From assembly GCA_024679065.1 (NCBI GenBank), contig JAGIQG010000043.1:2046001-2110000 (forward strand): a DNA stretch of 64,000 nt. Direction: 5' to 3'. Position 1 is the first letter of the stretch, and each line of letters begins with the position of its first letter. A program made the position numbers and the translations under genes. Shown piece after piece: positions 1,927 through 64,000 of the stretch. The DNA is from Sphyrna mokarran. Taxonomy: Eukaryota. The notes below the pieces were generated by a model. It did no database searches. It worked only from the letters and a program-made list of their open reading frames with translations, and was not told the DNA's origin.

Positions 1927-3650
1927 GTAATGTCAGCTGTTCCTTCCTCTCTTATCCAGAACTCACGGGATGATATGAATGCCCCCAGAAACTTGCTGGG
2001 GCGCAACAAAGAGCACGAGGGCAACTCAGATTCGATCCATTGCCATTGTCACTCAACGCAACACAATTTCCCCTGACGTTAACATCCAGTACTGAAGCAA
2101 ATCTTTTGCCTTATGCAATTTCAGCACATGCAAAGGAATTCCATAGCATTGTGAAGGGAGATATGATGGGGACAGAAGGGTAAAATGCAAGAAGAAGGGG
2201 CAAGTGGGACAAGGTGTCACCGTAGAAGCTGGATGGTGTGGAGAGTACTTGCTGTAAAGCATGATTGCACTGAGGGAATGTTGAAGGATAGCCGACCTCC
2301 AATCATTACCTCAGATCAGGATGGAGGAAGGAGTCAGAGTTCAATGATTGGCAAGATTGCAAATTCTNNNNNNNNNNNNNNNNNNNNNNNNNNNNNNNNN
2401 NNNNNNNNNNNNNNNNNNNNNNNNNNNNNNNNNNNNNNNNNNNNNNNNNNNNNNNNNNNNNNNNNNNNNNNNNNNNNNNNNNNNNNNNNNNNNNNNNNNN
2501 NNNNNNNNNNNNNNNNNNNNNNNNNNNNNNNNNNNNNNNNNNNNNNNNNNNNNNNTCACTCACTTTCTCCCTTCTATGTCCATAAAAACTGATGATGGAT
2601 TTTGGATTGCAGCCATTCCAGGTGGCAATGAATCTGGAGGTCACTGATGTTGTGGGAATCAGGAGTTTGCTTGAGCGCCAAGGCCAGGCCAAGCATGACT
2701 TTGCACCGAAGGGGCTGGAGTCGGAAGACCCGGAGGCTGCTACACAGGTGTAGAGGGCAAAGAGGGAGTTAAGCTCCTTAACACTTCTGCAATGTGGTCT
2801 GGGCCTTCTGACCTGCCAGTTAGAATGCTGGACACGTTGTTTTGGCCCTCAGCAATGAAGGCAGACTGTGATCAGGCCTTACTCATCATTGGTTATTGCA
2901 TGTTCCATTTGCCCAAGGCTCTCCACTTCGGTAACTCCTCCTGCAGTGTCAGTTTGGATTGCATGCACTGCTGTGGACTCCTCCAGAATGGCGTTGCAGT
3001 TGCACGAATATTATAGACATTCCCTCCAGGTACGTATGGTTTTACTTCTGCATCAGTCGCAGTTGGATCAGAATTCCTAGGGGATCGTCACCTACAAGAG
3101 CCCTCTGACTGTCAGTTCGCTTGGATGTTCCGATATTTCAGAAGGTTCCACATGGCAGATTGGTGCAGGAGGTTAAATCACACAGAATCAGGGGTGAAAT
3201 ACCTAAGTGGATTCAGAACGGAAATATGAGGTGATGCATTTTAGTCGATTCAATTCAAGTGGGAGCTGCAAAGTAAATGACAGAACATCCAAGGTATAGA
3301 CACATCGGGTGATTTGGATATATAGGTTATAAGAACATAAGAAATAGGAGCAGGAGTAGGCCATCTTCGAGCCTGCTCTGCCATTCAGTAAGATGTGAAA
3401 TAGATCAGTTTCACTTTCCTGCTTTCTCCCCATGACCCTTAATTCCTTTGTCTATCAGAAATCTATAGAGCCCTGAATATTATAACCTTAATAACATAAA
3501 TCTACTTAACCCAGCCTGAACGATAGAGCTTATTTAGCAGACACGGGGATAATGTGCAAACTCCATACAAACAGTGACCCAAGCCAAGAATCGAACCCAA
3601 GCTCCTGGAGCTGTGACTCAGCAGTGCTAATCACTCTGCTACGTGCTGTT

Positions 3651-5005
3651 CTTCTGGCAATCCTTCTGGGAATGGCTTTTGTATCCAGGAGAAAGATCTG
3701 CAGGTACCAGCAGAGAGGTAGAGATTGGCGGGGATTTCGTAACTGTGCCAGGCTCTCAATCAATTTGTTGATCACTTTCATTTTCAGCCGGTTCAGTATG
3801 AAATTAGACGATTTATAATCAGTTGTCGCTGCTCTTTTTAACAGGTAATGGGGACAATGATGAGGATCAGTTGAAGTATAGAGTATATTCAGAGGAAATG
3901 GTGGTAATTGCTTTTTATCATGTGGAGATTAGGCTCTGGCATTTTCATTTTAACTTGAAGAATCATACTTGTTGTATATGAGCCTGTGTGACTTTGCATG
4001 GTGCATACTGGCACACAACACTATAAATCTTTGCTATAACTCCATATGTGCGGAGTTTGAACATTCTCCTCGTGTTTACGTAGGTTTCCCGTGGTTTCCT
4101 CCCACAGTCCAAAGATGTGCGGGTTAGGTTGATTGGCCGTGTTAAGAAATTGTCCCTTAGTGTCCAGGAATGCATAGGTTGGAGGGATAAGTGGATTTAA
4201 TATGTAGGGATATGGGGGTAGGGCTTAGGTAGGATTGTGTTCGGTGTAGACTCGATGGGAAGAAGGGCCTCTTTCTACACTGTAGAGCTCTATCGTTCTA
4301 TTATTTCTATCGCTGTGAAAATAAATTACATTGAGATTGGCACATCAAGTGAAATTTTCGAAAGTCTTTTTAGAGGTCTTATGTTGGGTTAAGAGGATTA
4401 AGGATTATGTTCCAAAATTGTCTACCTAACTGCTGGAGACGACATGAATGGATGAATTTCCCCTTCTCATCGCCCTGAAGATAGTTTAGTTCATGGTGTG
4501 GAGATGCCGGCATTGAACTGGGGTAAACATGTCGCATATCTGTACTTGCCCGGGCTTGTAAAATCTCACTTACTGTCCTGTGTGGAGACAATACACATCT
4601 CTTTAACCTATGCTAATGCTATCTCTCACATTGTCTGCATCTTTAAGATTTGAACCGCAAGTTAGCTCTAAAGGCTTGCATTCTAATCAGTATTCTGTGA
4701 ACTGTGTGTGACTTTATATGCCCTTCTCTGATCAGAACCCTCTTCATACCTGACGAAGGAACACCGTTTCCAAAAGCTTGTGGGATTACTATCAAATAAA
4801 CTAGTTGGTCTCTAACCTGGTGTTGCAGGACTTCTTACTTAATTCATCATAACAGTGTTTCTATTATGTTTCAAACTCTGTCTGCCCGGCTGCAGAACGC
4901 AGAACCTAATGGCAGATGGAATTGAGAGCTCATATTCTGCTTCCGGGAAGCGATGCTGTTAAGAAATTTTCATCTGTTTCCTCATCATTGGAAGAAAGCC
5001 TGGAT
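3651..5005 (+). pseudogene. 3' remnant of an A-type paralog (half TM exon 3651-3717, cytoplasmic exon 3845-3903, dead last exon at 4875)
   Basis: LLAILLGMAFVSRRKICRYQQR vs gene A LLLPGLVLVAGRRICSNRQR; homologous intron; TLSARL with acceptor mutated to CAA; 5' part replaced by a SINE. Confidence 0.8.
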
Positions 5006-6554
5006 GTTTGATTTGATTTGGTTTATTATTGTCACGTGTTAGGAAACAGTTGTTTCTTGCGCGCTATGCAGACAAAGCATGCCATTCATAGAGAAGGAAA
5101 GGAGAGTACACATTGTAATGTTACAGTAGCTAGGGTGCAAACAAAGATCAGCATTATATAGGAGATGTCAATAGTCTGTTGGCAGCGGGGAAGAAGTTCT
5201 TTTCTTGCCGAGTTGGTACGTGACTTCAGATTTTTGTACTTTTTCATTGATGGAAGAAAGTCGAAAAATGTATGCCTGGAACTCCCTTAATCTGGTGCAT
5301 ATATAATTCTTTAAATCTGAACTCATTTATTGTAGAATCCGAGAGGCATAGACAAAAGTCGTAGGTAGAAGAAGGATTGAAATGAGGCACTCATTGAATG
5401 TTCAAATAGGCGGTGCGGGCTTGTAGGATGGAAGGGCCTTTTCCCTGTGTTATGCTGTTCTTTGTTCTTTATTCTTTGTTCTATGTTCTATTCTTTGTTC
5501 TAAAGGGTTCTTTTATTATGATATTTCTTTTGTTCAGGCAGCGGGTAGTGTAGACAGAGTCAACGGATGGGAGGTTGGCTTGTGCAATGGACTGGGTTTC
5601 ATTCATAACACTTGGCAGTGTCTTGATCGATATAGGAGTCATACCAAACTGTGATTCATCTGAAATAGGAAAAAGGTGAATGCATTCTGTACCTGAAGGG
5701 AAAGGGTTAATGAATTTTGTGTCTAGAATATATCAAAAACATAAGCCTTCAGCATGACTGATCTTTTCAAGCTTATATTATTTCTAGCATTAATACAAGT
5801 TATTTGTTCATTTCTTACATGTTTTAACTCTCATTTTTATAAAGTCAGATAGTTTAATGTGGCTGTTATTTTGTAGACTTTGCAAATCTTACTTATTTGT
5901 GTTAGTTGGACATCATTACACAGATGGTAGTTTACAATACCGGCTTTTAAAAGCTGCTGATGGCAGGACGTGACATTGGTGTTTAACAGGAAGAGTCCTG
6001 GTGGAACAGCCTCGATCGCACAAGTAACTTCAAAGACAAGAATGCTGGTACTGCTGCAGAAGGGATTTCCTGTGTCCTGACTGCAGGACTCTAATTCCTA
6101 ATTAACTCTGGGGCTGCATCACGACCCATGGAGGAAGGAGGCCTGGCAGAAATTGGAACTTTGAATAGGAATTCCTGCTGGGGCTTAGAATGTATTAATA
6201 TCCATTTTGTTTGTGTTCTATGACAAGTCTGGTGATCTATTGTAAGGAACCAGTTTCTCCCAGAATTCTGGAATAAGACATCAAAGTCTTGAAATAAAAA
6301 CCACTGTGTTTTGACTCACTGTCTCAGAGGTACTATTTCACCTACAACACCACCCTTACAGGAATCTTTGTAAAGATGAATCTTTAAAAGCTGGTTAGCA
6401 GACATGCCGAATTTCCTGAGCTTCTTTGGAAAGGAGAGACGTTGGTGGAGTCTGTCCAAGGGACTGCCATGTCAAATTTTGGTTTTGGCTGAATTATCAA
6501 TAACAAGGAAAAAAGTTTAAGACGTATTGGAACAAACGCCTAATGGAACCTGCA

Positions 6555-8400
6555 TCATAGAACATAGAACGTAGAACATAGAACATTACAGCACACAACA
6601 GGCCATTCGGCCTTCGATGTTGCGCCGACCAATATAAAAAGCAATGCCCCTCCAAACTAAACCATTCTCTTCTCTTCCATATACTTATCAACTAACCTCT
6701 TAAACGCCACCAAACTTGGCGCATCTACAACTGCTGCAGGCAGGGAATTCCACTCCCGAACCACCCTTTGGGTAAAGAACCTACCTCTGATATCCGTCCT
6801 ATAACTATCACCCCTTAATTTAAAGCCGTGGCCCCTCGTGCTATCTTTCTCCATCCTAGGAAAAAGGCTATCACTGTCCACCCTATCTAAACCTCTAATC
6901 ATCTTATATGTTTCGATTAGGTCCCCTCTTAGCCGCCTCCTTTCTAACGAAAACAACCTCAAATCCCTCAGCCTCTCTTCATAAGACCTGCCCTCCATAC
7001 CAGGCAACATCCTGGTAAACCTCCTCTGTACCCTCTCCAATGCCTCCACATCTTTCTTATAATGTGGGGACCAGAACTGCACACAATACTCCAAGTGCGG
7101 CCGCACTAGAGTTTTGTACAGTTGCAACATGACGTTGCGGCTCCGAAATTCAATCCCCCTACCAATAAAAGCTAAGACTCCATATGCCTTCTTAACAACC
7201 TTCTCGACTTGACTGCCTACTTTCAGGGATCTATGCACATACACACCAAGATCCCTCTGTTCATCAAGACTACTAAGAATCCTACCATTAGCCCTATACT
7301 CTACACATTTATTATTTCTGCCATAGTGCATTACCTCACACTTTTCCACATTAAACTCCATTTGCCACCTCTCGGCCCAGCTCTGCAACTTGTCCAAGTC
7401 CCTCTGCAAACTATAACACCCTCTTCACTATCTACCACTCCACCGACTTTAGTGTCATCTGCAAATTTACTAATCCATCCTTCAATACCCTCATCCAGAT
7501 TATTTATAAAAATTACAAACAGCAGGGGCCCCAAAACAGACCCCTGAGGTACACCACTTGTCACTGAACTCCACGATGAATATCTCCCATCAACCACCAC
7601 CCTCTGTCTTCTATCTGCCAGCCAATTCCTAATCCAATTAGCTAAATCACCCTCTATCCCATACATCTGCATTTTCTGCAGAAGTCTTCCATGGGCCACC
7701 TTATCAAACGCCTTACTAAAGTCCATATATACCACATCAACCGCCTTACCCCCATCCACCTCTTTAGTCACTTTTTCAAAAAACTCAATGAGGTTAGTAA
7801 GGCACGACCTACCCTTCACAAAACCATGCTGACTATCCCTAATCAATTCATTTCTCTCTAAATAACTATAAATCCTATCCCTAATAATTCTCTCCAATAC
7901 TTTGCCCACAACAGAAGTAAGACTCACTGGCCTATAATTCCCAGGAAGGTCTCTCTTCCCCTTCTTGAACAACGGGACCACATTCGCTATCCTCCAGTCC
8001 TCCGGAACCACACCCGTAACCAACGACGACCTGAAGATCAGAGCCAGAGGCTCTGCAATCTCCTCTCTTGCCTCCCAGAGAATCCTAGGGTAAATCCCGT
8101 CCGGCCCAGGGGACTTATCCAACTTCAAACCCTCGAGAATATCTAGCACATCCTCCCTATCTACTTCGATACCTTCCAGTTTGCTACCCTGTACCTCAGT
8201 GTTCTCCATAACTACATTTACATCACCCTGCGTGAATACCGAAGAGAAATATTTATTCAGTACCTCTCCAATCTCTTCAGGCTCCACGCACAACTTCCCA
8301 CTGCTGTCTATGACTGGCCCTAATCTTGTCCTAACCAATCTTCTATTCTTAACATACTTAAAGAAAGCGTTAGGATTCTCCTTAATCCTATCAGCCAAAG
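6555..8400 (-). mobile_element. CR1 (HER1-like) LINE, 5'-truncated, young, one frameshift near 7410
   Basis: ORFs 7331-8422 and 6657-7409 with RT motifs; (TTCTATG)n tail. Confidence 0.95.
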
Positions 8401-8944
8401 TCATGTATGTAAGCCAAAGCATGTCAAAAGCACATTTGGACCTACCTGTTTATTTCATAATTTCAGCATCAATGTCCATTTCTTGTGTGAATCTTTCTTT
8501 TTAATTTGTTAAAACTGGAAAAAAAAACATGCAAAACATCCATAAAGATTGCACACTACCAGCCTCGTATTTGCATAGCACAATGATAACTGCGTTGTCA
8601 TGGAAATGAATCTTTATTTATTCTTGGATAATGAGAGCCTTTTTCCCTGGATGAAAATGGCTAATACAAGGGGGCATAGCTTTAAATTGAGGGTGATAAC
8701 ATAGGACAGGTGTCAGAGGTAGGTTCTTTACTCAGAGGGTAGAAAGGGTGAGGAATGCCCTGCCTGCAGCAGTCGTGGACTCGCCAACTTCAAGTTCATT
8801 CAAATGGTCAATGGATAGGCTCATGGATAATATTGAAATAGTTTAGGTTAGAGGGTGATTAGATTGGTTCTACTGGGCGACACAATATCAAGAGCCAAAG
8901 GCCCTGCAAAGCGCTGTAATGTTCTATGTTCTATTATTATGGTA

Positions 8945-9620
8945 CGGAGGACAGTAAGAAATCTCACCACTCCAGGTGGATGTTCAGCAGATTTATCTGG
9001 AATCACGAGCTTTCGGAGGGCTGCTCCTTCCTCAGGTAATTGGAGTAGAGTGTTCACAAGCACGGCCGATAAAGACAGAGACACAATTGCAAGATAATGG
9101 ATGGAATGTGAGCCTTACAGTAAATGAAGTCTGTATAGGTACAGAGACTATAAGGGGGGAGAGGGGTAATCACAAGTAAGCGTTCTCGAGGGCGGCCTAC
9201 AACACACATGACAACGCAGAATTGCCGAGTACAAGCTGATAGCGAATTACCGCATACATGAGGATGGACTCAACTATAATTTGGTGTACATGTCGCACTA
9301 CATGTATCCCTCAACAGCTGGTCTGAGTTTGCAAAATCATCCGAACTGTCTTGGCTTGAGACAATTCATATCTCTTTAATGTGTGTTTATCCCTCTGTCC
9401 ACTCGCATTGTCTGTCCCTGTAAAAACTTGATTCCGTGTAAATTCTCGCATTCCAACTATTATCTTGCATTTGTCTTTCTGTCTGTATAGGCTACATTTG
9501 TGGTCCTAGCTCTCCATTGACCTGAGGAAGGAGCAGCTTTCCATAATAAACCTGTTGGAGTTTATCCTGGTGTAGGGAAATTTCTTACTGCCCCACTTCA
9601 GTCTAACGCTGGCATTTCCA
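8945..9620. mobile_element. Penelope-like element end: inverted pLTR, GIY-YIG C-terminus, pLTR
   Basis: VLEGGLQ..QRRIAEYKLIA..HEDGLN at 9180-9300; pLTR in opposite orientations; related copies at 4500-4840, 35860-36160, 44325-44700 and 60165-60500. Confidence 0.75.
9001..9037 (-). ncRNA. Minimal hammerhead-ribozyme-like core in Penelope pLTR
   Basis: CUGAGGA-A-GGAG(CAGCC)CUCC-GAAA-GCUC. Confidence 0.45.
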
Positions 9621-10869
9621 TTCACATCATTGATATGTGAGGCAGTGGCACAGTGGAATCATAAATGGACGATAAAGCAAGAGGCCTAGAGAAATATGTA
9701 GGGGACACGGGCTTGAATCTCACCATGACAGATAGTGAAATTTGAATTCAGTAAAATTCGGAATTAAAAATCTAATAATAGCCATTAAACCATTGCAGAT
9801 TGTCATAAAATCCAACTGATTTTGGGAAGGAAATCTGCCGTCCTCACCCGTTCTGGCCCACATTTGACTCCATGCTCACGGTTACGTGGTTGACTCTCAA
9901 ATGCCCACTGAAATAGAGAGAAATTGGGAAGGAAAATAAAGGAAAGGAGCGAAAGCTTTGGGAAAAACTGGCTCTTCAAATATATGAGTACTTCGAAAAC
10001 CAATGGATCTGATGTATAGAGTTGAAATTGAAAAAAAAATCATATGTAAAAAGAATGAAACAATCACTAGGGTATTTTTTGAATTCATTCTTGGGTCACG
10101 GGTGTCGCTGGCCAGATTAACACTTACTTGCTCCTGGAGGCATCTGAGAATGAATCACAGTGTTATTGCTCTGGAGTCGACAGGGAGGCCACACCAGATA
10201 TAAGGAGGGCAAGTTTCCTTCCCTAACGGAACTTAGTGAACCCGACTTTTTTTTTCCGAAAATCGATTCGTGGTCACCTGCAGATGTTTCATTCCAGATG
10301 GATTTCCTCTGGGCGCTCAGATTTCCTCCACAGTTGGATCGATATGCTAATTAGGTACATTGACCTTCCTAAATTTTCCCTCATTGTACGGAAACAGGCG
10401 CCAGTGTGTGGCGACTTAAATGATGTTCATGTTAACATCGTTCCAGTATTAATGTAAGCCTACTTGTTACAATAATAAGTAAACTTTAACTTTAAAAATG
10501 GTATAGCCCATCCTTAGTGCCCGAGGACAGTTGAGAGTCAACAATATTGCTGCGTCTCTGAAGTCACATGTCGGGCAAACCAGGTAAGAACGGCAAATAT
10601 CCTTCCCTCAAGAGCATTAGTGAACTTTTACTGAACATTTGTCAGGAAAATAAAGCAAACTCGAATGAACAGAATTCGAAAGAATTCCTTTCATCTGAAC
10701 ATGGGGTCACAGTTTTTACTGTGTGAACACTGATTCTAGCTGTTAGTTCTTACCCGTTTTTACTCACCATAAACCTGCAACAGCAAGAAAATGGGTCTTG
10801 CATATAATCATTCTTTGCATATCTTTACGTGCTATTTCTACATGTTTTGTGATCTGTTTGTTTCTGTGG

Positions 10870-12000
10870 GTTTAATGGCCGCAGGTTGATCAGAGCTCAA
10901 ACCCAGACAGCTTCGTCCCTTCAGACACAGTGGAAAATGTGACGGGCTGCGCAATGGAAAGTCTGACACAAGTTTGGTGCGGTGTGCTGGTGAATTCCAC
11001 ATTCACTTGACACAGTGTGGTCATGGACTGCGCGTCATAGCAATGAACAGGCAGCATGTCATAGAATCATAGAACCCTACAGTGCAGAAAGAGGCCCTTC
11101 GGTCCATCGAGTCTGCACCGAACACAATCCCACCCAGGCACTACCCGCATGTTCCTATATATTTTACCCACTAATCCCTCTAACCATAAGGGACAATTTT
11201 AGCATGGTCAATCAACCTAACCCGCACATCTTTGACCTGTGGGAGGAAACCGGAGTACCCGGAGGAAATCCACGCAAACACGAGGAGAATGTGCAAACTC
11301 CACACAGGCAGTGAGCCGAGCCGGAATCGAACCCAGGTCCCTGAAGCTGTGAAGCAGCAGTGCTCACCACTCCGCTACCGTGCCGCCCACTTCTTCAGGG
11401 AATGTTACAGTACGTAAATTCTGTGGCAATGTATGTCTATTTCAGATAAATTTCAATTCATTCGCGAGATGCGAACTTCCTTAGAAAGGGCAGACTGAAT
11501 TGTTCATTCGAAGATGATGATGTCCAAAGATGTGCAGTTTAGATGGAGTGTTCATGCCAAATTGCCACTTAGTGTCCAATTCTGTAAAGAGGTTGCACAT
11601 GATTCCTGAAGAAAGCTGCCTCATAAAGAGAAGTGAAAATATTCTATGAATTATATGTGAGTTGATTGAAATTGTGCTAGGACTGTCAATGATTTGCTGC
11701 TTGAGTGTAGAATGTACAAACTGCCTGACCTGCAGATGAAATGGGTATGTCTGTTGCGACTCAGAAGAGGTTTCTGCAAATTGTAATCAACACGAGTAAT
11801 GCTTGCAAATAGTGACCAATTTTCTTTTGAATAGGTTCCTGTAATATGCTTAATTGTAGACCAGCAGGTTCTTTGTGCAGCTAAATCTATTTCGAATGCC
11901 CGACTCTCTGCGGTTTCACATTGTGTCTCAGCTACTGATATCTGGAGGCAGTTGGGTAGGTGTAGCAGCTCAAATGTAAACAAAAGCGAGAACGCACATC
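10870..12000 (+). pseudogene. Decayed VJ (10870-11430, SINE-interrupted) plus C1 (about 11780-12000) pseudogene
   Basis: One frame reads ENVTGCAMESLTQVWC..NSTFT*HSVVMDCAS*Q*, then F-GNVTV and a GTATGT donor. C1 reads VPVICLI..SAVSHCVSATDIWRQ. Confidence 0.55.
11060..11389 (-). mobile_element. Full-length HE1-like tRNA-derived V-SINE
   Basis: tRNA-like A/B boxes, V core, CR1-type tail; absent from the paralogous site near 61410. Confidence 0.88.
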
Positions 12001-15000
12001 GAGCTGCTGTCTCGGACAACTTTCTGTCTCAACGAGCTCAGAATCTCAACCAGCGATTGCTGCTTTTTCTGTGCTTTGCACACTCCCTGAAATGGCTGTG
12101 AGAGAGGCGTCTTTCTTAAGATCATACCATGCAAGCGTGTTCACAGCCAACACCTCTCTGTCTTTCTCTATCTGCTGCCAAGCCCGGCTCTCTGCTGCAA
12201 AACCTCATGACTATTTTCCTTGACTTTAAACGTCATAGCTGTTTTTGCAGAGCATTTCAACCACTCCAGAAGGAGCTCCCTCTCTCTTCACCTCGCAAAC
12301 CTTCTGTGGCACTAATGCGTTCTAACAGGGCCTTCACCTTAAGATGTATGGATCCAGCTATTGTCTCCAAGCTCTGTTCCTCCTCATTCTTTTGAACGTT
12401 CCCTGGCGGAATAATTGCTACTGGTCCTTGTAGAGAATCTAAAACATTGAATTTGCTGTTTCAATATTCGCATTGGAACAACTGTCGAATGACAGTCTCA
12501 CAAACATGTAAGATTTGATCCACCGGCAGTTTCGAAGTGTTTTCGTTCTGTTAGGGTGGTGCATGTTGACGCTTTGCAGTAAGTATCACGGAAAACCGTG
12601 TTCTAAACCGTATCCTAATTAGAGCTTTGTTTCACTAAAGCGACTGATTCTACTGGGATGTCTAATTCGAACATTTGAATAAATGTTCCTCTAATATTCG
12701 TGACTTCAAAATACTAACTAGTTTCTTGTTTCATAACAGAGCGAATAGGTCCGACTCAAAATACTTTATACACAAAATACTTTTTACAAATTTGAATTTT
12801 AAGCCGAGGTGTTTGATCCATAGTTTGAGCCCCCATTTTCCAGTAACAACATTACATTCATTGATCCTGCTTGTGCCAGTCACCGTTGATTTTTACTCCA
12901 TTGACTAAGTTCCTGGGCGGCATGGTGACACAGTGGATAGCACCGCTGTCTCACAGCACCAGGGACAGGGTTATGAATGACTGAACATCGACAGGTCACT
13001 TGGGTAGGTCCCAAAGATCCATTATCCTCTAGGCGCAGAAAATTCTCCTCTCATTCTGAAATGCAAATTCTTTACTCTGAGGTTATGTGATATTTTTTCC
13101 AGACAAGGGGGAATCAAATTCTTTCGGATCTGGCATGTCACTATCCTTCACAATATTGTGTTTCAATGCGTAGAAGTCTCATTTTCCTATTCTACAGAGA
13201 ATTTAACATAATTTTTCCAGTTTCTCATCACAGGGCAACTTTATCGTTCAAGGGATCAATGATAGATTATTAGGAGTTGGGGACCAAATGTACTGTGCCC
13301 AAGTACACAGATTAATCAGGAAAAGGACATAGGACATAGGACATAGAACATAGAACATAGAATGTAGAACAGTACAGCGTGGTACAGGCCCTTCCATTCC
13401 TTAAAAAAAAACACTTGTGAGTCCTAAAAGGATCTTGCGACTTTTCTCAATCAGCGGTACTCAAAGATATACAGAAAATATTGGAAATATTTGCAAGTGT
13501 GGCTGTATCTGGAGAAAACCAACGTTAATATTTCAGGTTGATAATCTTTGAGAAATGTAGAGAATTAACAATTTTTAGGTAGGCACAGAGGCAGAGGAAG
13601 TAGATGGGGAGGAAAGAAGAAAAAGAGTTGGCTTCTGATGGGGCGAAAAGCAAGATTGATTAAATGACAAAACAGATGAATGGTGAAGACAAAAGGTATA
13701 ATAATGGGACAAGTTAAGAAACACAAGATGGCGGCGTAGGTTTGTTGGGCCGAGGGGCCTGTTTCCCGTGCTGTTTTGTTTTTTGTTCTTTGATGTTGCA
13801 CCGACCAATGGAACCATCTAATGACCCTCTAACCTAAACTATTCCAATGTTATCCATATGCCTATCCACTGACCATTTGAACATCCTTAAAGTTGGCGAG
13901 TCCACAACTGCTGCAGGCAGCACATTCCACGCCCTTACTACCTGTGAGTAGAGAACCTACCTCTGACATCCGTCCTATACGAATCACCCCTTGGTTAATG
14001 GTTAATCAAGAATGTCAGGATCCTATATTCGGCAGCAAGTGCCACCACTAAACTGTATAGAGATGGTCTTGGAAGGTACAGAACAAGTAACCAGGCACCT
14101 GCTATTTAAACAGGCTTGCAAGTGCAATGATAAACAAACAATATTACTCTCCCTATATTAAGTTAACCTAAATTAAGATAAAGGACGACGGTTAGCTTAA
14201 ATAGAACAAATCGCGCTGTTTTTATTTCGTTTTGAGTTTAGAGCCTTGTCTGTTTCTATGTTCTATCACCATTTGTCATTTCTGTAAAAAAAGAACGAAT
14301 ACCATATTTGTGAAAAGGGCAAAATACCGAGAGTTGCATGACATTGATTTAAGAGGATTTGTCAAAAGAAGCAACAGGAATTAATAAAAATGGCGATTGA
14401 GGTGTCTGGGACAGGATCTGTAAACTAGAACACTGTAAGTTTACATGTCAATGTCCAACAATGTGCAATTAGGTTGATTGACCATGCTTAATTGTCCCTT
14501 AGAACAAACAACAGTACAGCAGAGAAGCAGGCCCTTTGGCCCTCCAAGCCTGTGCCACTCATGTGACCAATTAGACCATTCGTTTGTATCCCTCTGTTCC
14601 CAGTCTGGTCACGTGGCTATCTAGGTAAGTCTTAAACAATCCCAGCGTGTCCGCCTCGACCACCATGCTTGGCAGTGCATTCCAGTCCCCCCCCCACCCT
14701 CTGTGTAAAATACGTCCCCCTGACATCTGCGTTGAATCTTGCCCCTCCCCCCTCACCTTGAATCTATCACCCCTCGTGCTCGTCACCTCCGACCTGGGAA
14801 AAAGCTTCACCCTATCTGTGCCTTTCATAATTTAAGACACCTCTATTAGGCTTAGTATCTGAAGATGTGCAGGTATTCTGGATTGGTCAAGCAAAATTGT
14901 CCCTGAATGGCCAAATATGTGCCAGTTGTCTGATTGGCCATGGGAAAGTTGTCCTTTTGTGTCCAAATGCAGGTTACGTGCATTGGTCAAGCTAAATTGT

Positions 15001-26730: not shown

Positions 26731-26829
26731 GTAATGTTTCATAAGTGCTTATCCAAACTTGTTTGATGTAAGACTAAATGCTTCAATTAATAAACTGAGG
26801 GATTCTATGTGACATTTCGCAGACATTAA

Positions 26830-52429: not shown

Positions 52430-52540
52430 ACTCTCTTTCTCTCTTTCTCTCTCTCCATCTCTCTCTCTCTCTATCTATCTCTGTCTCTATCTATCTATTT
52501 ATCTATCTGTCTATCTACCTTACTATCTATCTATCTGGAC
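52430..52540. repeat. (CT)n/(TATC)n microsatellite
   Basis: Direct observation. Confidence 0.9.
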
Positions 52541-52861: not shown

Positions 52862-52960
52862 TGTGAGGGAAAAGGGTACTGTGTTATGGGTCTGAGGGAG
52901 AAAGGGACCCGAGTGCGAGGTTTGAGGGGAAAGGGGCCTGAGTGGGTGTTCTGAGGGTGG
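52862..52960 (+). repeat. ~29-nt degenerate tandem repeat (TGAGGG(A)AAGGG.. x3-4)
   Basis: Direct observation. Confidence 0.65.
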
Positions 52961-53504
52961 AGCTGAATGCGGTCCACTCAGGTGTCCACAACATGCATAC
53001 TGTGTGGAGCTGAGGTCATCTCAGTACTGGAAGGATGAAACTTTATTGAAAACGTTTAAGATCCATAGCATCCTTACATTGCAGAAAGAGGCCTTATTGA
53101 AAAGGGGACAGGCGAGATTTGCAACAATTCTGGGGGAACTGGAAGGTTACATCTATCGGACAATATGAGGGGCGTTTGAGGACTATGGGTTTGTAGTCAA
53201 TTGAGTTTAGAAGGATGGGGGGATCTCATTGAAACTTGCAGAAAACTAAAACGCCTGGATCGAGTGGACGGAGAGAAGATGCTTCCATTAGCAGCTATGA
53301 CTAGGATCCGAGGGCACATCTCAGAGTAACGGGGCAATTCTTAAGATCTGAGATGTGGAGAAATGATTTCAGCCAGAGGGTGGTGAATCTGTGAAATTCA
53401 TTGCCGCAGAAGACTCTGGAGGCCAGGTCACTGAGTGTATTTAACAGATTCATGCGTTTTTGATTGCTAGGAGAATCAAATGTTACAGCGGAAAGGCAGG
53501 AGAT

Positions 53505-53825
53505 TGGGCGGCAGAGTAGTGTAGTGATGTTGTTTCACAGCTCCAAGGACCTGGGTTCGATTCCCAGCTCGGGTCACTGTCTGTGCAGAGTTTGCACATT
53601 CTCCCCATGTCCGCGTGGGTTTCCTCACTGTTCTCCAGGTTCTTCCCACGATCCGAAGATTGCAGGTTAGGTGGATTGGCCGTGCTAAACTGTCCCTTTG
53701 TGTCATGGGACGCATAGGTGAGAGGGATTAGCGGGTAAAATAGACGTTAGGGCCTGGGTGGGATTGTTGTCGGTGCGGACTCGATTGACTGAGTGGTCTC
53801 TTTCTGCACTGGAGGCTTTCTATGG
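53505..53825 (+). mobile_element. HE1-like V-SINE nested in an old CR1 fragment (53090-53900)
   Basis: tRNA head, core and tail. Confidence 0.8.
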
Positions 53826-54152
53826 AATGAGAAACCGATCAGTCATGATTGGATGGTGGAGCAGACGCGATAGACTGAATGGCCTAATTTTGCTCCTACA
53901 ACTAATAGTCATCTGGTCTATTTGATTTCAGGCGAACATAACCAGCCACTTGGCTGATCCACATTAACACAGAAGAATGAAGTGATGCATTCAGTTATGA
54001 AGGGTTCAGGCACTAATAAGAAATATGTTTAAAAACTTAAAGAGGATGAATGATTGAGGAGATAGAGAACAGCAGATACTGAAACATTGAATTTGGTAGG
54101 ATGAATTGAGAGGGTCATTTGGTAAAAAAATAATTAATTCGTTTCTCTACAG

Positions 54153-54680
54153 AGGAACTAAACATTCAGGCTGCAATTTATATGTACGCCTTTGAAAATT
54201 CTCGTCATTTCAAAGCAGGGATGTTGCACATAATTATGGACGGAAAACCACAGGGAGGGTATCACGGTTATCAGAAGTGCCCAGAAGCGATTTGCCATCT
54301 TGGCACTAGGAATGGAATCTTCTGTTATATGAAGAGTGTGGAGATACTTGCATCTTTTTTTTATCCCGGAAAGGGGGAAATGGTAAAAGGGATTTGATGG
54401 AGCCGTTCATCTACCGTAGAGAGAGTGACACTGAACAGGATTGCCTAAGTAAAGAGCTAGAACATATTCACCAACTGTAGATGCAGTGACTGAGAGAAAT
54501 CATTAAATTGAGAGTCACTGTGAACAGAGCCACCTCATGTAGACGTGGCATTTGTCAACAGCACGGCCTGACGTGGCTGTGCTGATGTTGATCACAGTTG
54601 ACTGGCGTGGAGGAAATGGCTTCGAACAGCGCCACCTTCAGCATTGGAAGTGGCTGCAATACTATCAGGTCAATGAAAGG
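54153..54680 (+). pseudogene. Decayed V plus C1 pseudogene
   Basis: C1-like NRATSCRRGICQQHGLTW..TGVEEMASNSATFSIGS in one frame, ending at donor GTAAGA (54681). Upstream CTCTACAG acceptor and J-like FDGAVHL. Confidence 0.4.
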
Positions 54681-55336
54681 GTAAGATGGACAAATATGTG
54701 ATCTCAGATCTCATGAGATACGAAAATACGGATCAAACAGGAGAGTGCTAATCCGGTAAAAGATCTAAGGGATTTTCACAGTAACTTCATTTGCAGTATA
54801 AATGCAAGCCTAATTATGACACGAACAATAATTTTCTGTTGAAGGAATTATTTCTTCCAAATCACTCACGTGTCTCTCTTTTCCAATATCTCAGAAGAGA
54901 TGGTCAACAGAAACAATCAATCTGCCCTTTTTGGGAGGTAAAAGATCCTCAGGCACCAATCAACAGAATCATAGAATCGTAGAATCCCTACAGAGCAGAA
55001 GGAGGCCATTCGATCCAGTGAACAATTCCACCCAGATTCCATCTCCATATCTGTATCTAATCGCACGTCTTTGGACATTAAGGGGCCATCCACTTAACCT
55101 ACACATCTTTGGGCAGATAGGGGCAATTTGCCTTTGCCAATCCATCTAACTGACGCATCTTTGCACGCAAAGGGACAACTTAGTACGGCCAACAAACACA
55201 AGAGAGTGGTTGGGTTTGGGTGGTGTGAGGATGGATTGTGAAGTGAGTGGGTGATGATGGCAGTGGGTGATGTGTTGTTGCTGGTTTTCCACGCATTTTC
55301 AAGTGGGTTATTCCCCAAACCAAATCCATGATTTGG

Positions 55337-55645
55337 AGCGGCACAGTAGCACAGTGGTTAGCACTGCTGCTTCTACAGCTCCAGGGCCCTGGAATCCAAG
55401 TCGATTCCCTGCTTGGGTCACAGTCTGTGTGCAGTTTGCACGTTCTCCTCGTATCAGCGTGGGTTTCCTCCCACAGTCCAAAGATGTGCAGGTTAGGTTG
55501 ATTGGCCAAGCTAACAAATTGCCCCTTAGGTGTAGTTTAGAGGATTGGTGGGTATAATATATGGCGGTAGGGCCTGGGTGGGATTGTGTTCAGTGCAGAC
55601 TCAATGGGCTGAAGGAAGTCTTTCTGCACTCCAGCGTTCTATGAT
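55337..55645 (+). mobile_element. HE1-like V-SINE
   Basis: tRNA head, core and tail. Confidence 0.85.
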
Positions 55646-55737
55646 GTATTAGCTGGGTAGTACTACGGTGCCCCTCGCTCTATATTTTTTCCTTTCCAAC
55701 TTTGCAATCGCAGCTGTTGTGCTGTAATTAGCAAAGC

Positions 55738-56090
55738 ACATTACCCTTCATTGCTTGTGCATTGTTCCTCTTCTTCCCTTGTTCCGTTTATTGGTTCAAA
55801 TCTATCCATCAACATTTGAACTCAGTGTGATTTGTTGATGAAAGGATGGTGTATGTCATATTTTAAAGTTGCCATTCTTCAGAGGAATAATGTTCTCTTT
55901 CCTGCTGCAGCAGAACATGCAGCGATAACCTTGTCTCTTTCAGGTATTGTATCTCACGCAGTTTTGCCACAGACCCCAGCAATCCGGACTCTGTCGCTTG
56001 GATGAACATACAAGGTGCATTGTCACATGGGCTGGTTGGCATGGAGGAGTTATCTATTGGCATAAACGGTGGCAACGGGAGCATCTACAA
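55738..56090 (+). pseudogene. 5' remnant of an A-type paralog (leader 55738-55780, V exon start from 55944)
   Basis: Leader (T)LPFIACALFLFFP shares TGTGCATTGTTCC with gene A and has the same length, with ACA in place of ATG. V start IVSHAVLPQTPAIRTLSLG*TYKVHC..GGVIYWHK has a stop and a frameshift. Confidence 0.65.
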
Positions 56091-59000
56091 CTAAGATCTC
56101 ACGATCTGTTTCCGGGATATGACGCAGTTAAGATCGTTTCATCTGTTTCCTCTTCATTTGAAGAAAGCCTGAATGTATGATTTGATTTATTACTGTCATA
56201 TGTATTTGTATACAGTGAAAAGGATTGTTTCTTGCACGCAATGCAGCCAAAGCATACCGTTTATAGAGAATGAAAGGAGAGTGCACAGTGTAATGTTACA
56301 GTCGTAGCTGAGGCGCAGGGAAAGATGAACTTAATATAATAGAGGTCAAAAGTCTGACGGCAGCAGGGAAGAAACTGTTCTCGGTCAGTGACCTCAGACA
56401 TTTGTATCTATTTTTCCGACAGGAGGAGGTAGAAAAGTGTATGTCCAGGGTACAAAGGATCTTTGCTTCTGCTGGCTGCTTTTCCAAGTCAGGGGAAAGT
56501 GCCTTGGAAAAGTGTCTTCCGCTGCCTTTGAAAAGATGTTGCTTTGTGCCTTGGACTGGCTTAATGTGTAATCTTTGGTAGTAGTATCTTGCGATCTTGC
56601 TGGGAACAGGAGCCAGACTAACATGTGAACCATCCGGAGAGGATGCTTTATTGTGCTGCATCATTAACATTTGATTGGAGTCAAAGCGGACTTGCCGAAT
56701 TTCCTTAGCCTCCTTAGAAAGCAAGGGCGTTGGTGTAGTCTGCCCAAAGGACTGCCATGTCATATTTCGTTTCTGGCTTCGTTATCAATAACAAGGAGTA
56801 AAGGGACACGGCTTATCACCTACTGGGCATTCTTAACGCCTAATGGAACTTGCACCATGTCAAGAGAACTCTGACATTTGGTCCTCTCTGATTGCTGCAG
56901 AGCCTCGATGTACATGTTCCTACCTTATGTAATTTTTTTTAATGTATTGTGCATTTTCATTTGGGTTTGAGCAGGAAGGAGAGCATCCAAAGAACCAATA
57001 CGTTACAACACGTATCCAAAATCAAGCATTGCGTTTGTGAGTCCAAACTGTCCAATTGTGTTCATTGAATCTGGATTACCAGGTTACAGGATGCCTGTAT
57101 AGAAAGGATAGGTAACGTTTAACTGTGGGCAACAATTTGATTAGATTGATATCAGTAATGTCGTGATGTAATGTTATGATATTACCATGAGCATGAGCAA
57201 ATTGACCCTAAATTAGTCATCCCTCAATCTGGTTATAATTCCTTTATTGTGGAGTCCAGAAAGCGGTGACAAAGGTCATAGGTAGAAGAGGGCACTCACA
57301 ATGTTAAAATGGCGGCGCGGGCTCGTTGGGCCGAAGAGCCTGTTTCCCGTGCTGTGTTGTGTTGTTCTTTGTTCTTTACAGTACAAAAATTCGACTGGGG
57401 TGGGGGGGTGGGGGGCGGGGGCGGGGTGGTGATCTAAAATAGATCTTGGAAGGTATGAAAGATTCAAAAGGATACACGTATAGAAAGTGAGGGGACACAA
57501 GAACATTGGATTGCCAGCATCCGTTATTCCCTCACGGATCCAACGTAAAGTTCAAGAGAAATACCTTTCCCAGAAATAGCATAGAATGTGGAACTCCGTA
57601 CAACAGGGTTTGGTTAAGTAGAATATCAGATACTCATTTAGGGGGAAATTGGATCAACGCAGGACGGAGATAACAATAGAACATGTTGTGGGGGAATGGG
57701 CAGAGTGTGGGTAGGAAGAGGCTGGTGTAGATTACAAACACTGTGACAGTGGCCTGTTGTCCTGGAAATAATGTGTATTTTGTAATGAAGAGATCGTGGG
57801 AAGAGAAAGTTGTTTTTTGGAGATGATTGATTTAATTCGGTTTGATTTGATTTATTATTGTTACATGGATTGGGATACGCTGACAATTGCTGCTTCTTGC
57901 TGACAAAACATACATTTCAGAGAGTACATAGGGGAGAAGGTTAGGAGAAGGTGCAGAATGGATTTTTACAGTCATAGGTGTAGAGAAAGAAACTTATTAA
58001 TGGTACGTTCATTCAAAAGTCTATTGGCAGCAGGGAAGAAGCTGTTCTTAAGTTGGTTGGTATATGATCTCTGATTTCTGTATATTTTTTTACTGACGGA
58101 AGTAGGTGGAAGAGAGTTTGTCCGGGGTTATGGGGTCCTTGGATAACCTCGCTATTTTTCGGAGGTCGCGTGAAGCATAAACAAAATCAGTTGATGAATC
58201 GATACATCAATGGATGTAAATGACATTGGTCTTCTGAATAAAATAAATAGTTCATTATGAAAGTGAAATTCAAAGGACGTTTCATTGAGCTGATGATGTA
58301 TATCCGTTGCAATTTCGATATTGCAAACATTGGAAGCTTGAGGCCCTTTTCTTTCCAAGGGAGAAACTTCACTATTTCTTCAATTAGTTCATTCATGGGA
58401 TGGTGGCGTCACAGGTTCTCCAGTATGTACTGGCCATCCTCATTTACTTTGAACTAATGAGTGACTTGTCAACACAGACTTTTTTTTACAACAACTGGTT
58501 TTAATTCTTCGTTAGAATTTAATTCCAAATCTTTGTGTTGTGTTTATTTTTTGCCATGTGTCGGAGTCGGAATTGAACACGGGGCCCTGTAACATAATCC
58601 AACAAAATGACATTTATCCTTGCATCAAGATCTTCTTCGGGGACAATGATCCACAGTACCAGTCCACACTGGGAAAGTGCACCATGACGTCACCCCTAAA
58701 CACTCTGGCAGTAATTTAAAAGCTCTGACCCCATGTTATGGAAACCTGCCCCCACTCCACCCCCGTCAGAGGACACTGTTTCCCTCCATCACCTCATCAA
58801 ATTATTTTCAAACTTAAACATGGAGATTAGAACATCTCATCATATTATCCGCTTGAAGGAATAAGATTACTCAGTGTAACGCGTTCTCGCAATGTATCCC
58901 TTTTTAATTCTAATATCTTCATGCTAAACTGAGATGTGTTTCAGAGAACCCAACACCGCAGTTCAAATTCTGCACAACTCACATGAATGTAAAATGTTCT

Positions 59001-59772
59001 TTTTTTTTAATTCATTCCTGGGATATGGTGATCGCTGGATGGTCAGGATTCTTTCCCCATCCTCAGTGGCCCTAATGAATCGAGCGGACATCTTGAAAGA
59101 CTTCAGCCCACCTACTATACGTTGACAAAATGGCCGTTAGGGAGAGAATTCCAGGATGTTGGCCACGTGACGGCCAATATATTTCCAAGGGAGGATGGTG
59201 AGTGGCTCGAAGGGGAACTTGCTGATGGTGCTGTTCTCGTGCATAAGCTGCTCTAGTCCTTCTACAAGGCAGTGGTCGTGAGTTTGGAAGGTGCTGTCGA
59301 AGGATCTTTGGTCACTTATTGGTTTACACTGAGCGCCATGGTGTAGAGAAAGAATGTCTGTGAAACTGCGTTTCTTTCTCCACGGATCGGCTGATCCGAT
59401 CAGCCTGAACGGCTGATTTTATCCAGCATTTATATTTATAATGTAAACAAAGTTCTCATTAAAAAGAATGGGATAGTCAAATGGGAGATCTATTAAATCG
59501 GCAACCCACTTTGGCAGTGTCTGGGAGATGGAACTTACAAAATAAGTGAAAATAAATTCACTTATTCAACCAAATCCCATTTCTTCTCTTGATTGAAGAC
59601 TAAACAGTTAGACTGATGTGACTCCTACGCAGTGTAACCATGTGCAGAGAACCCCTTGATCTGTAACTGTAAACTTTCTTGCAAAGCTTCACAAACTTAG
59701 AATTAGTAACATCTGAATTATAAATTAGAGAAAAAGGCAAAACTCCATAAAGATTGCATCCTACTATTCTGG

Positions 59773-60112
59773 TAGGGCGACACGGTAGCACAGTGGTTAT
59801 CACTGTTGCTTTACAGCTCCAGGGTTCTGGGTTCGATTCTCGGTTCGGATCATTCTCTGTGTAGAGTTTGTTCATTCTCCCTGTATCTGTGTGGGTTTCC
59901 ACCGGGTGCTCCGGTTTCTCCCACAGTCCAAAGATATGTGGGTCAGGTTGATTGGCCATGCTAAGAAATTGCCCCTTAGCGTCTAGGGATGTGTAGGTTA
60001 GCGGCATTAGTGGGTATAATGTATAGGGATAAGGGGGTAGGGCCTGGGTAGGATTGTGTTCAGTGCAAACTCAATGGGCCGAAGGGCCTCTTTCTGCACT
60101 GTAAAATTCTAT
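59773..60112 (+). mobile_element. Full-length HE1-like V-SINE
   Basis: GGGCGACACGGTAGCACAGTGG..GGTTCGATTC..core..TTCTATG; absent from copy 1 near 8565. Confidence 0.88.
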
Positions 60113-61230
60113 GATAATACAATGATAACAACGTTGCCATGGAAATGAATCTTCAATATTGTTTAGGACAGTAAGAAATCTCACAACAGCAGGATAAAGT
60201 CCAGCAGGTTTACTTGGAATCACGAGCCTTTGAAACACTGCTCCTTTCTCAGGTGAGAGGAAAGGTGGGTTCACAAGCACGGTCTATATAGATAGAGACA
60301 CAATTACAAGACAATGGTTGGAATGCGAGTCTTTACAGTTAATCAAGTCTTTACAGGTGCAGGTAATATGTGAGGAGGATGTATAGTGATGGGTAAGCGG
60401 TCTCCAAGGCGGTGTTCAAGATACAAGAAAATGCATACTCGCCAAACACAAAATCATAGCCAAGTTCCCCTTTCATGAGGATGACCTCAACCGGGATCTT
60501 GTCTCCAATAGAAATCAGAGTTTAGAAGTCTGATGACCATTAAACCATTGTCGATTGACGTAAAATAAAACTGGTTTCGGGAAGGAAATCTATCGTTCTC
60601 ACCTGGCCTGGCTGACGTGTGTCTCTATTCCAAAGCCATCTTCTTTACTATCAAATACCCTCTGAAACAAAAGGAAGTTAGGGAGGAAAATAGAGAAAAG
60701 GAGCAAAGGATTTAGAGAAAAATTGGCTCGTTGAAAACACAGTGCGGTGAACAATTGCTCTGATATGTAGGGTTCAAATAAAATCACATTTTACTATGTA
60801 AAAGTAAAATGAAGCCATCACAAGCTTTTTTGAATGTTCATTTTTGAGACACGGGTGTTGCTGGCTGGGCCACCATTTTTTGGCCATCCCTAGTTGCTTT
60901 TGGAGGGCCGTTAAAAATCAATCACGTTACTCTCGCTCAAGAGTCCACATGGCGGGAAAACAACATAAGGGAGGGAAACATCCTTCCCGAAAGGGCATTA
61001 CTGGACCTTTACTGAACATTTATGTGAGGAAAACAAAGCAAACTCGCATGAACAGAGTAGTTCCTTTCATCTGAGGTCACAGTTTTTACTGTGTGAACAA
61101 TTATTGTCGCTGATAGTTCTTACCTCTTTTACTCACCATAAACCTGCAACAGCAAGAAAATGAGCCTTGCATATAAAAATATCTTTACGTGCTATTTCTA
61201 CATGTTTTGTGGACCTGTTTGTTTCTGTAG

Positions 61231-63340
61231 GGTTAATGGCTGCAGGTTGACATGAGCTCAAACCCAGAGAGCTTTGTCTCTTTCAGATACAGTGGAAATT
61301 ATGACGGGCCGTGCGATGGAAAGTCTGACGCAAGTTTGGTGCAGTGTGCTGGTGAATTCCACATTCACTTCAGACAGTGTGGTCATCATAGCGATGAACA
61401 GGCAGCATGTCTTCAGGGGGTGTTACAGTACGTTAACTGTGTGGCGATATGTTTTCTATTATAGCTAAATTTAATTCATTCACGGGATGTGAATTCCTTA
61501 GTAAGGGTGAAGTACACTGTTCTTTCGAAAATGATGATGTCCAAAAATGTGCAGTTTAGGGGGGATTGTTCATGCCAATTTGCCTCTTAGTGTCTAAATA
61601 TGTGTAGATTAGGTGGATTGATCGTGCTAAATTGTCCCTTGCTGTCTTAAGATGTGCAAATTAGGTGGATTGGCCATGCTAAATTGCTCCTTCGTATCCA
61701 AAGATGTGCGGGTTCGGTGAATTGGCCGTGTTAAATTGGCCCTTGGTGCCAACGACGTTCAGCTTCGGTGGATTAGTCGTGTTTATTGTGCGTTGTTACG
61801 GGGATAAGGTGAGTGATGTGGACCTGGGTAAATTAGTGCTTCCTTCTGCACTGCAGGCAGTCTCTGATCATATTCCGTATTCCTGTCAATGCACGTGCGA
61901 ACACTGAGAGTTCTACCTCTAGACGACACGGACAGAGTAACTGGAATACCAGAATGATAAAGTGCCCCTAGAATCTGTGGAACATCCACTGGGCCTACGC
62001 ATCTCGGGACACGAAAGGGGAAATCTATACTACACGTGTTCTATGATCCCATCCTACGAATGTAGCATTACCAATCTTTCTATCCAGCACATCGGAAAGC
62101 ATTGAAGGGCAGTTGGGTATGGTCAATCCACCGACCCTGCACATGTTTGAACACTATGGGATAATTTACATGGCTAATCAGGGTAAAATGCATCTTTGGA
62201 CACAAAGAGGCAATTTAGCAGGACCAATCCACCAAGACTGCACATTTTCACACTGTGAGATGAAAACCGAACACTCAGAGGAAACCTGCGTAGGCATGAG
62301 GAGAACATTGAGACTCCAGGCAGTGATCCAAGGCAGGAATCGAAGCCAGGTCCCAGGCGCTGTGAGACAGCACTGCTACCAACTGTGACAGCAGGATGTA
62401 ATGTAATTGTGCTCAATCTAATTCATTCTTTAAAGAGATTGCACATGATTGCCCCAGTTGGAGTATTGTGCGCAGTTCTGGTCGCCTCATTATAGGAAGG
62501 ATGTAGAGTCTATTGAGAGAGTTCAGAGGAGATTTACGAGGATGCTGCGTGGATTGGGGGGCAGGCCTTATGAGGATAGGTTGAGGGAGCTGGGACTCTT
62601 CTCACTGGAGAGACGTAGGTTGAGAGGCGACTTGATAGAGGTTTATAAAATGTTGACAGGGATAGATAGGGTGGACTCTCAGAGACATTTCCCCGATCTG
62701 AAATGGTCACTACGAGAGGACACCGATTTAAGGTGCAGGGAAGCAAATACAAAGGAGATGTCAGGGGTAGGTTTTTCACTCAGAGGGTGGTGAGTGAATG
62801 GAACCGACTGCCATCGGAGGTTGTTGAGGCAAACTCAGTGGGGTCTTTTAAGAGACTTCTGGATGAGTATATGGAAAAGAATAGGATAGGAGGGTATAGA
62901 TAGATGTGTGGATTGGTGGATGTGATCGGCGCAACTCGTGGGTCGAATGGCCTGTTTGTGCTGTATTGTTCTATGTTCTATGTTCTATGATTCCTGCCGA
63001 AGAAAGAGAAGTGAAAATATTCTATGAATTGTATGTAAATTGACTGAAATTGTGTTGAAAATCTCAGTGATTTGCTGCTTGAGTGTAGAATGTACAGACT
63101 GCAGTTCCTCTGACCTGCAGATGAAATGAGTGCATCTGTTGTGAATCAGAGCGGGTTTCTGAAAATTGTAATCAACACTAGCAATGCGTCCAAATTGTGA
63201 CAAATACTCTTTTGAATAGTTTCCTGTAACATGGCTTAATTGTAAACCAGCAGGTTCTCTGTGCAGCTAAATCTACCTCGAATGTCCAACTGTCTGCGGT
63301 TTTACATTGTGTCTCAGCTTCTGATCTCTGGAGGCAGTTA
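61231..63340 (+). pseudogene. Duplicate copy of the 10870-12000 VJ-C1 pseudogene (V 61231-61450, C1 about 63160-63340)
   Basis: Collinear nucleotide homology; intact TTTCTGTAG acceptor; J-like VFRGCYSTLTV. Confidence 0.5.
62451..62990 (+). mobile_element. CR1 3' fragment with TSD ATGATT
   Basis: ATGATT at 62445 and 62987; empty site at 11599-11604. Confidence 0.9.
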
Positions 63341-64000
63341 GATAGAATAGATAGAATAGATAGATAGATAGGTACAGTTGGGTAGATTTAAGAGGATTGT
63401 CAAAAGAAGCAACAGCAATTAATAAAAATGGCGATTGATGTGCCTGGGACAGGATCTGTAAACTAGAACACTAAGTTTAAATGTCAATGTCCAACAATGT
63501 GCAATTAGGTGGATTGACCATGCTTAATTGCCCCTTAGAACAAAGAACAGTACAGCGCAGAAGCAGGCCCTTCTGCCCCCCAAACCTGCGCCGCTCATGT
63601 GACTTATTAGACCAACTCGTTTGTATCCCTCTTTCCCAGTCTGTTCATGTGGTTATCTAGATAAGTCTTAAACAATTCTGTTCATGTGGTAATCTAGATA
63701 AGTCTTAAACAATTCCAGTGTGTCCGACTCAACCACCTTGCTTGGCATTGCTTTCCAGGCCTCCATCACCCTCTGTATAAAATACGTCCCCCTGACATCT
63801 GTGTTGAAATTTGCCCACCATCCCCCTCACCTTGAATCTATGACCCCTTGTGCTCGTCACCTCCGACCTGGGAAAAAGCTTCACCCTATCTGTGCCCTTC
63901 ATAATTTTACAAACCTCTATTAGGCTTAGTATCCAAAGATGTGCAGGTATTTCTGGATTGGTCATGCAAAATTGTCCCTGAGTGGCCAAATATGTGCCGG

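Follow-up and report, generated by a model that had tools for sequence, protein, structure and literature searches.

The 64,000-nucleotide stretch analysed here (the window) comes from the shark Sphyrna mokarran (assembly GCA_024679065.1; 2.77-Gb genome), where it occupies positions 2,046,001-2,110,000 of contig JAGIQG010000043.1, hereafter C1027; window-scale coordinates continue past both of its ends. Two genes, A and B, lie between two copies of a repeated block some 50 kb apart, each gene combining a variable (V) domain and a J-like segment in one exon (VJ) with a C1 domain, a transmembrane (TM) segment and a cytoplasmic tail, and the analysis concerns the array of such genes to which they belong and the manner in which it grew. 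Contiguous sequence of 1,064,000 bases was assembled around the window (C1027 1,796,001-2,860,000), supplemented by 32 stretches of 10 kb farther left on C1027, targeted at gene hits, and by 80 kb of a second contig, C894. The principal features, in window coordinates, are:

1923..14923, forward strand: copy 1 of the B-to-A intergenic spacer (self-BLAST, copy counts, identities)
Copy 1 blocks, forward strand (self-BLAST): 1923-2351, 4925-5274, 5320-5471, 6397-6558, 8948-9274, 9782-10112, 10565-11060, 11392-11585, 11616-11959, 14346-14923
16595..24267, forward strand: gene A, intact, six exons, 312 amino acids, all introns GT-AG, open frame
Gene A exons, forward strand: leader 16595-16637, VJ 17315-17650, C1 19987-20322, TM 21696-21815, cytoplasmic 21955-22013, last exon 24223-24267 with TLYARL
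24268..46992, forward strand: A-to-B spacer, repeated in inverted orientation at 77-97 kb and 131-152 kb (window-scale)
46993..50999, forward strand: gene B, eight exons, frameshifted (exon models)
Gene B exons, forward strand: leader 46993-47047, VJ 47635-47962, C1 48053-48382, TM 48964-49065, cytoplasmic 49169-49199, 49434-49480 and 50777-50826, last exon 50922-50999 with PLYASL
47652..47654, forward strand: frame-shifting 5-bp deletion at the start of the gene B VJ exon
51833..64000, forward strand: copy 2 of the B-to-A spacer, running past the window end into the next gene A
~65,866-72,348 (window-scale): next gene A, intact, six exons, 308 amino acids

The V-set and C1-set domains of gene A score above the Pfam cut-off, and a J-like FGxG is joined inside its V exon, which ends FGNGSKLVI; the V exon of gene B ends in a degenerate J-like LQNGPTLLV. 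A search of both genes from leader to C1 for recombination signal sequences (RSS), allowing at most three mismatches, found none. Splice-like joints in contigs from sequencing runs guessed to be RNA of a relative cover two of the five A introns (both tail introns) and five of the seven B introns; the two runs concerned derive from another organism and a single study, so they support the exon boundaries rather than expression of the window copies, and the run search listed no matching run recorded as RNA, and none in which half of the query words occurred. The closest named proteins are from other sharks, Mustelus asterias for the A V domain (69-70%) and Heterodontus francisci for B (67-73%). 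The tail motifs TLYARL and PLYASL are kept in named homologues, each one position off the strict consensus of the immunoreceptor tyrosine-based inhibitory or switch motif (ITIM/ITSM), and an inhibitory role at the cell surface, with signalling through this one tyrosine motif, is predicted for the A and B proteins. A cysteine precedes the TM segment in both types, and the two would most plausibly pair as a disulfide-linked dimer. The 5-bp deletion is present in the B gene of the window, the other 29 of 30 aligned B loci being without it, and DNA contigs of the relative retain the five letters; this gene B is likely a pseudogene.

Several peculiarities of the window's gene A stand beside these features. 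The VJ exon (17315-17650) lacks one codon and encodes an additional cysteine beside the first V cysteine; the C1 exon ends in a 15-bp tandem repeat (4.1 copies, 20252-20312) and, being 336 nt long where paralogues have 321 or 306, gives a longer stalk; and the TM exon (21696-21815) has a proline at mid-segment where paralogues have leucine. Elsewhere on C1027, exon 5 could not be detected in two identical A copies (2,728,268 and 2,779,712); its absence would put the tail out of frame and remove the tyrosine motif. An isoform from Mustelus (P0002) shares this short tail. Farther left in the array, three A-type TM exons (near 789,400, 935,700 and 1,709,200) encode an arginine within the TM segment.

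The initial annotation had described at least seven blocks recurring in the same order and orientation at about 50 kb, and self-BLAST of the window bears this out: ten same-strand blocks of 1,923-14,923 recur in the same order at 51,833-63,998, with offsets of 49.0-51.9 kb and identities of 71-85%. The placement of both genes also agrees, the ATG of gene A (16,595) lying 1,650 bp after 14,945, the annotated end of copy 1, and the stop of gene B (50,999) lying 834 bp before copy 2. A further A leader had been expected near 65,650 and is present near 65,870 (216 bp away), in an intact six-exon gene; a B last exon had been expected upstream of position 1 and lies about 3.5 kb upstream, in a B gene with its V exon at about -13.9 kb and a stop codon at the end of C1. 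With dispersed repeats masked, eight of the nine low-copy same-strand matches of at least 150 bp in the window fall at an offset of 48-52 kb, and the collinear chain is therefore not due to chance. The two copies align over 27% of non-repeat bases, at a mean identity of 77%.

High-copy repeat accounts for 28% of the window, and 4047-4285 (60 copies in 1.064 Mb) and 4925-5274 (44 copies) are mainly dispersed repeats. The remaining blocks have 11-19 copies each in the same sequence, mostly within 25 kb upstream of a same-strand A leader; block 1923-2351 is an old repeat that the unit contains, partial and weaker matches to it being present on large chromosomes, and block 11616-13300 is confined to the contigs of the cluster apart from one 50-bp repeat. 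Other elements within or beside copy 1 and in gene A are:

3661..3900, forward strand: orphan A-type TM fragment (3' half), probably with part of the following exon behind it; confined to copy 1
6558..8400, reverse strand: young long interspersed nuclear element (LINE) copy, of a family with 89 matches making up 7.9% of 1.064 Mb
11480..12420, reverse strand: cluster-specific stretch of stop-interrupted frames resembling open reading frames, no homologue found
17788..19875, reverse strand: LINE (reverse transcriptase) insertion in the VJ-C1 intron of gene A

The LINE insertion lengthens the VJ-C1 intron of gene A to 2,336 bp, whereas the paralogous introns measure about 100 bp. The stretch at 11,480-12,420 matched no Pfam family; a 148-residue frame from a paralogous copy had no Atlas match and no homologue among longer proteins, and the frame had no parent gene in the genome outside the cluster contigs, so that the label of pseudogene is unsupported there. 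Minisatellites that originated from dispersed repeats, their units 51-52 bp or 96 bp long, occur at 20870-21322, 22213-22776 and 61538-61774, two of them in A introns.

Beyond the window, C1 searches located at least 37 A-type and at least 33 B-type exons on C1027 between 0.61 and 2.85 Mb, plus fragments. The 1.064 Mb of contiguous sequence holds 21 A and 15 B genes with a V exon. Of the 35 pairs of neighbours, 28 combine an A with a B (shuffle p=6e-5), and the same-strand period has a median of 53 kb (17 triples; range 33-106 kb). Array genes are mostly on the minus strand; the window lies within a four-gene plus-strand run, B-A-B-A, with young LINEs on both sides. Strict criteria leave 12 of the 21 A and 4 of the 15 B intact, and a further A and two further B have an open frame with one non-AG acceptor (in total 13 A and 6 B); one B, whose TM exon is 14.6 kb off, fell beyond the range of the modeller, and its seventh exon has 49 rather than 50 bases. 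Ratios of nonsynonymous to synonymous substitution (dN/dS) are 0.39 and 0.46 for C1 (11 A and 6 B distinct sequences), indicating that this domain is under purifying selection, and 1.24 and 1.18 for the loops. With paralogues of mixed age (blocks of 90-99.8% identity), pseudogenes and a purified C1, this is a birth-and-death multigene array.

Further A and B copies occur on C1404, C782, C851-853, C868, C891, C1016 and C1572, several scoring identically to copies on C1027, and these contigs are probably haplotigs or unplaced pieces of the array. Other clusters of repeated V and C1 exons were seen at C772:7.9-9.0 Mb, C838:36.0-36.1 Mb, C1548:81.1-81.9 Mb and on C994, their C1 exons about 27-41% identical to those of the array; the C1548 cluster lies a few Mb from matches to class I of the major histocompatibility complex (MHC). 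A single head-to-head B/A pair is present on the 26.5-Mb contig C894 (2,351,000-2,386,300), its A V domain 40% identical to that of window A and resembling a Scyliorhinus protein (P0024); it is a candidate for a conserved ancestral pair, and a scan of open reading frames in 80 kb around it revealed no framework gene recognisable by eye.

The kinship of the copies departs from their order. Copy 1 has its nearest relative inverted at contig 2.572-2.559 Mb, about 0.5 Mb away (90-97%), and copy 2 has its nearest relatives at contig 2.746, 2.818 and 2.219 Mb (88-90%). On a larger scale, -44 to +16 kb of the window coordinates is an inverted duplicate of contig 2.626-2.558 Mb (96%), 22-40 kb matches contig 2.722-2.709 and 2.773-2.760 Mb (96.6%), and 49-62 kb matches contig 2.822-2.808 Mb (90.6%); at least three histories are pieced together in the window. 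Across the region, adjacent genes of the same type are no more similar than random pairs, with median identities of 89.7 versus 89.5% for A and 87.9 versus 87.5% for B.

The large young duplications hold both genes. Among the 13 chains of at least 95% identity and at least 8 kb, four carry both V exons, one A only, two B only and six neither, and both types are present in every one of the four chains longer than 30 kb, which include a true tandem copy, 99.8% identical at an offset of 51.4 kb, at 2.70/2.75 Mb. At 90% identity (19 chains) the counts are four with both, four with A only, four with B only and seven with neither. The claim of the initial annotation that A and B are amplified together stands for these large young blocks and fails as a lasting rule, the partnership being unstable and A-only duplications occurring. 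Taken with the Mantel correlations of A and B distances given below, from which the signal disappears once near-identical twins are removed, the large blocks show that A and B are co-carried when young and that partners are not retained: young duplications carry both genes, and partners are reshuffled over time.

There are two palindromes. The larger (C1027:2,408,279-2,482,918) has 37-kb arms of 99.6% identity around a centre of about 100 bp, with two identical A genes head to head and two B genes identical in V and C1 and different in their tails; the B at 2.481 Mb is intact with the tyrosine motif, and the B at 2.410 Mb has an arginine in the TM segment and a stop directly after, making an activating twin or a pseudogene possible. 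The second (C1027:2,365,372-2,408,271; 21-kb arms, 99.3%) holds B tail exons.

The reading favoured here, with a probability of roughly 0.85, is that the blocks are old paralogous copies of the B-to-A spacer within a 2.2-Mb array in which some 70 non-rearranging receptor genes of VJ-C1-TM structure alternate in type, and which is likely to have expanded through successive segmental duplications and inversions, probably aided by recombination between young LINEs. Gene order, copy numbers, exon structure, identities and the large young duplications with both types were observed directly; the history connecting them would begin with an ancient head-to-tail A-B array that fixed the period of about 50 kb. 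Later long-range duplications, direct and inverted, would have shuffled the units, so that neighbours are no closer than average, and direct, inverted and palindromic duplicates would have arisen where LINE copies, or units of the array, recombined unequally with one another. Selection may maintain a changing subset of the genes, by birth and death, and A and B would travel together mainly because they are interleaved. Consistent with a part for LINEs, a young LINE is present within 300 bp at 11 of the 30 distinct breakpoints, the background being 17% (p=0.008).

Several observations weigh against this account. The distances of A and downstream B are correlated (Mantel r=0.53, p=0.0004, n=13), the correlation falling to r=0.31 (p=0.04) when three near-identical-twin pairs are dropped and to r=0.16 (p=0.27, n=9) when four are dropped, and that of A with upstream B is r=0.12 (p=0.25, n=10). 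The LINE enrichment is modest, because breakpoints are non-independent and LINE insertions after duplication also end chains. Blocks of 99.6-99.8% identity could in part be haplotype or assembly duplicates, and the contiguous sequence covers 1.064 of about 2.25 Mb of the array. The intervals of the loop dN/dS (0.73-2.54 and 0.65-2.73) both include 1, and positive selection on the loops is therefore not demonstrated.

An unlikely alternative holds that A and B are obligate cognate heterodimer partners, amplified by selection as fixed pairs. The strong alternation, the presence of both types in all four large young blocks, the lone head-to-head pair on C894, the adjacent accession numbers of A- and B-type proteins in Mobula birostris and the pre-TM cysteine of both types would all suit it; intact genes, however, number 12 A to 4 B (13 to 6 with the three open frames that have a non-AG acceptor), co-phylogeny is gone beyond near-identical copies, A-A neighbours and A-only duplications exist, and each type has its own tyrosine motif. 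A different extension, and an equally doubtful one, sees the array as a germline two-chain receptor repertoire, in which A and B, each shaped like a chain of the T cell receptor (TCR), might pair combinatorially (about 12 x 4-6 in the modelled part), with cassette duplication in place of RAG as the source of diversity and on/off twins, such as the B genes at 2.410 and 2.481 Mb, arising from palindromic duplication; were this so, the array would offer a present-day model of an antigen-receptor locus from before RAG.

More improbable still is the proposal of the initial annotation that a single tandem duplication of a cassette of about 50 kb, comprising pseudogenes, A and B, made both copies in the window. 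The collinear same-strand chain at 48-52 kb, the next A so near its predicted position and true tandem copies of about 51-53 kb elsewhere in the array are what it would lead one to expect. The copies, however, are far closer to distant relatives, 0.1-0.7 Mb off, than to each other, and the neighbouring genes are no nearer: in V and C1 together, window A shares 86.6% identity with the next A (rank 19 of 20 among A) and window B 82.1% with the upstream B (last of 14). Nor does the unit extend as proposed, the same-strand chain shared between -16 to +25 kb and 43 to 73 kb comprising B, spacer and A and then stopping; at +50 kb the A-to-B spacer aligns over 5% on the same strand and over 86%, at 85% identity, when inverted, and the next B (78.7 kb, window-scale) is on the minus strand and without TM or tail exons. 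The pseudogenes likewise drop out of the cassette, the A-type TM fragment being missing from copy 2 and the ORF-like stretch having no protein homologue. A single recent tandem event is refuted, and the proposal survives only as a very old founding step of the array. That the blocks are dispersed repeats, which the initial annotation had named as a possible refutation, or an assembly artefact is barely credible and is refuted for the chain in the window: the high-copy share of the window, the two blocks that are mostly dispersed repeats and the identical copies on small contigs speak for it, but most blocks have 11-19 copies, chiefly at one position upstream of an A leader, 11616-13300 is limited to cluster contigs, and identities of 72-86% are too low for an assembly echo.

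Profiles of A and B align over 284 columns at 33% identity, and in the tree each type forms an old clade that includes sharks and rays and is joined, with moderate support, by relatives from bony vertebrates, A grouping with turtle and caecilian proteins (88/89) and B with paddlefish and lungfish (85/85, on long branches). Relatives were found in turtles, a caecilian, coelacanth, lungfish, gar, sturgeon and paddlefish, and the RefSeq labels of homologues read immunoglobulin (Ig) light- or heavy-chain-like.

Among known systems the nearest appears to be PRARP (PRARP1/2 of chicken), reportedly the subject of a 2019 paper (J Immunol 202:1992) and said to comprise two sister non-rearranging VJ genes with C1, TM and a tyrosine-motif tail; the VJC1 genes of Xenopus, attributed to Ohta et al. 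2019, are said to have the same features, and MHC linkage, a disulfide-linked dimer and lymphocyte expression are reportedly common to both. A and B fit a PRARP-like identity in several features: both have V and a J-like segment in one exon without RSS, a V-C1-TM architecture and an ITIM/ITSM-like cytoplasmic motif, and the sister types are adjacent, in the alternating array as in the head-to-head pair on C894. The shark array differs in having about 70 alternating copies and not one pair. Sequence searches returned no protein labelled PRARP, and the likeness is one of features. Matches to MHC class I all fall on C1548 (53 of 53), with none on C1027, which is 2.86 Mb long, or on C894; PMC10751288 lists PRARP among the VJ genes in the MHC.

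Shark UrIg, a secreted homodimer of VJ and three C1 domains according to PMC12227049, and UrIg2 resemble A and B in being VJ-C1 genes of sharks that do not rearrange and whose V exon is not split; set against UrIg, A and B have one C1, a TM segment, a signalling tail, two types and many copies. Identity as rearranging or germline-joined Ig or TCR genes was rejected, given the lack of RSS, the tyrosine-motif tail and the identity of about 27-41% to other C1 clusters. Germline-joined Ig light chains are known in sharks. The many-fold repetition of the cassette and the Ig labels of the homologues recall these and the shark Ig miniclusters, which are described in PMC12227049. In contrast to both, A and B are without RSS or a separate J, have a V-C intron of about 100 bp, a TM segment and a tyrosine-motif tail, and form two interleaved types.

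SIRP, NITR, KIR/LILR and CHIR are birth-and-death clusters of inhibitory receptors of the immunoglobulin superfamily, and the array shares with them segmental duplication, many pseudogenes, variable ligand-facing loops, a conserved membrane-proximal domain and inhibitory tails. In contrast, A and B have a single V and a single C1, like a TCR chain, and form two ancient alternating lineages about 33% identical. SIRP, NITR and PRARP are listed as joined-VJ genes in PMC11599192. A literature search returned no account of a 70-copy alternating shark array, although the PRARP and VJC1 papers and their supplements may already mention shark copies. The pattern of duplication is itself ordinary birth-and-death; the gene family is notable and poorly described, its A and B homologues carrying Ig-chain labels in databases, and the array supplies natural variants for studying A/B pairing, ligands and copy-number variation.

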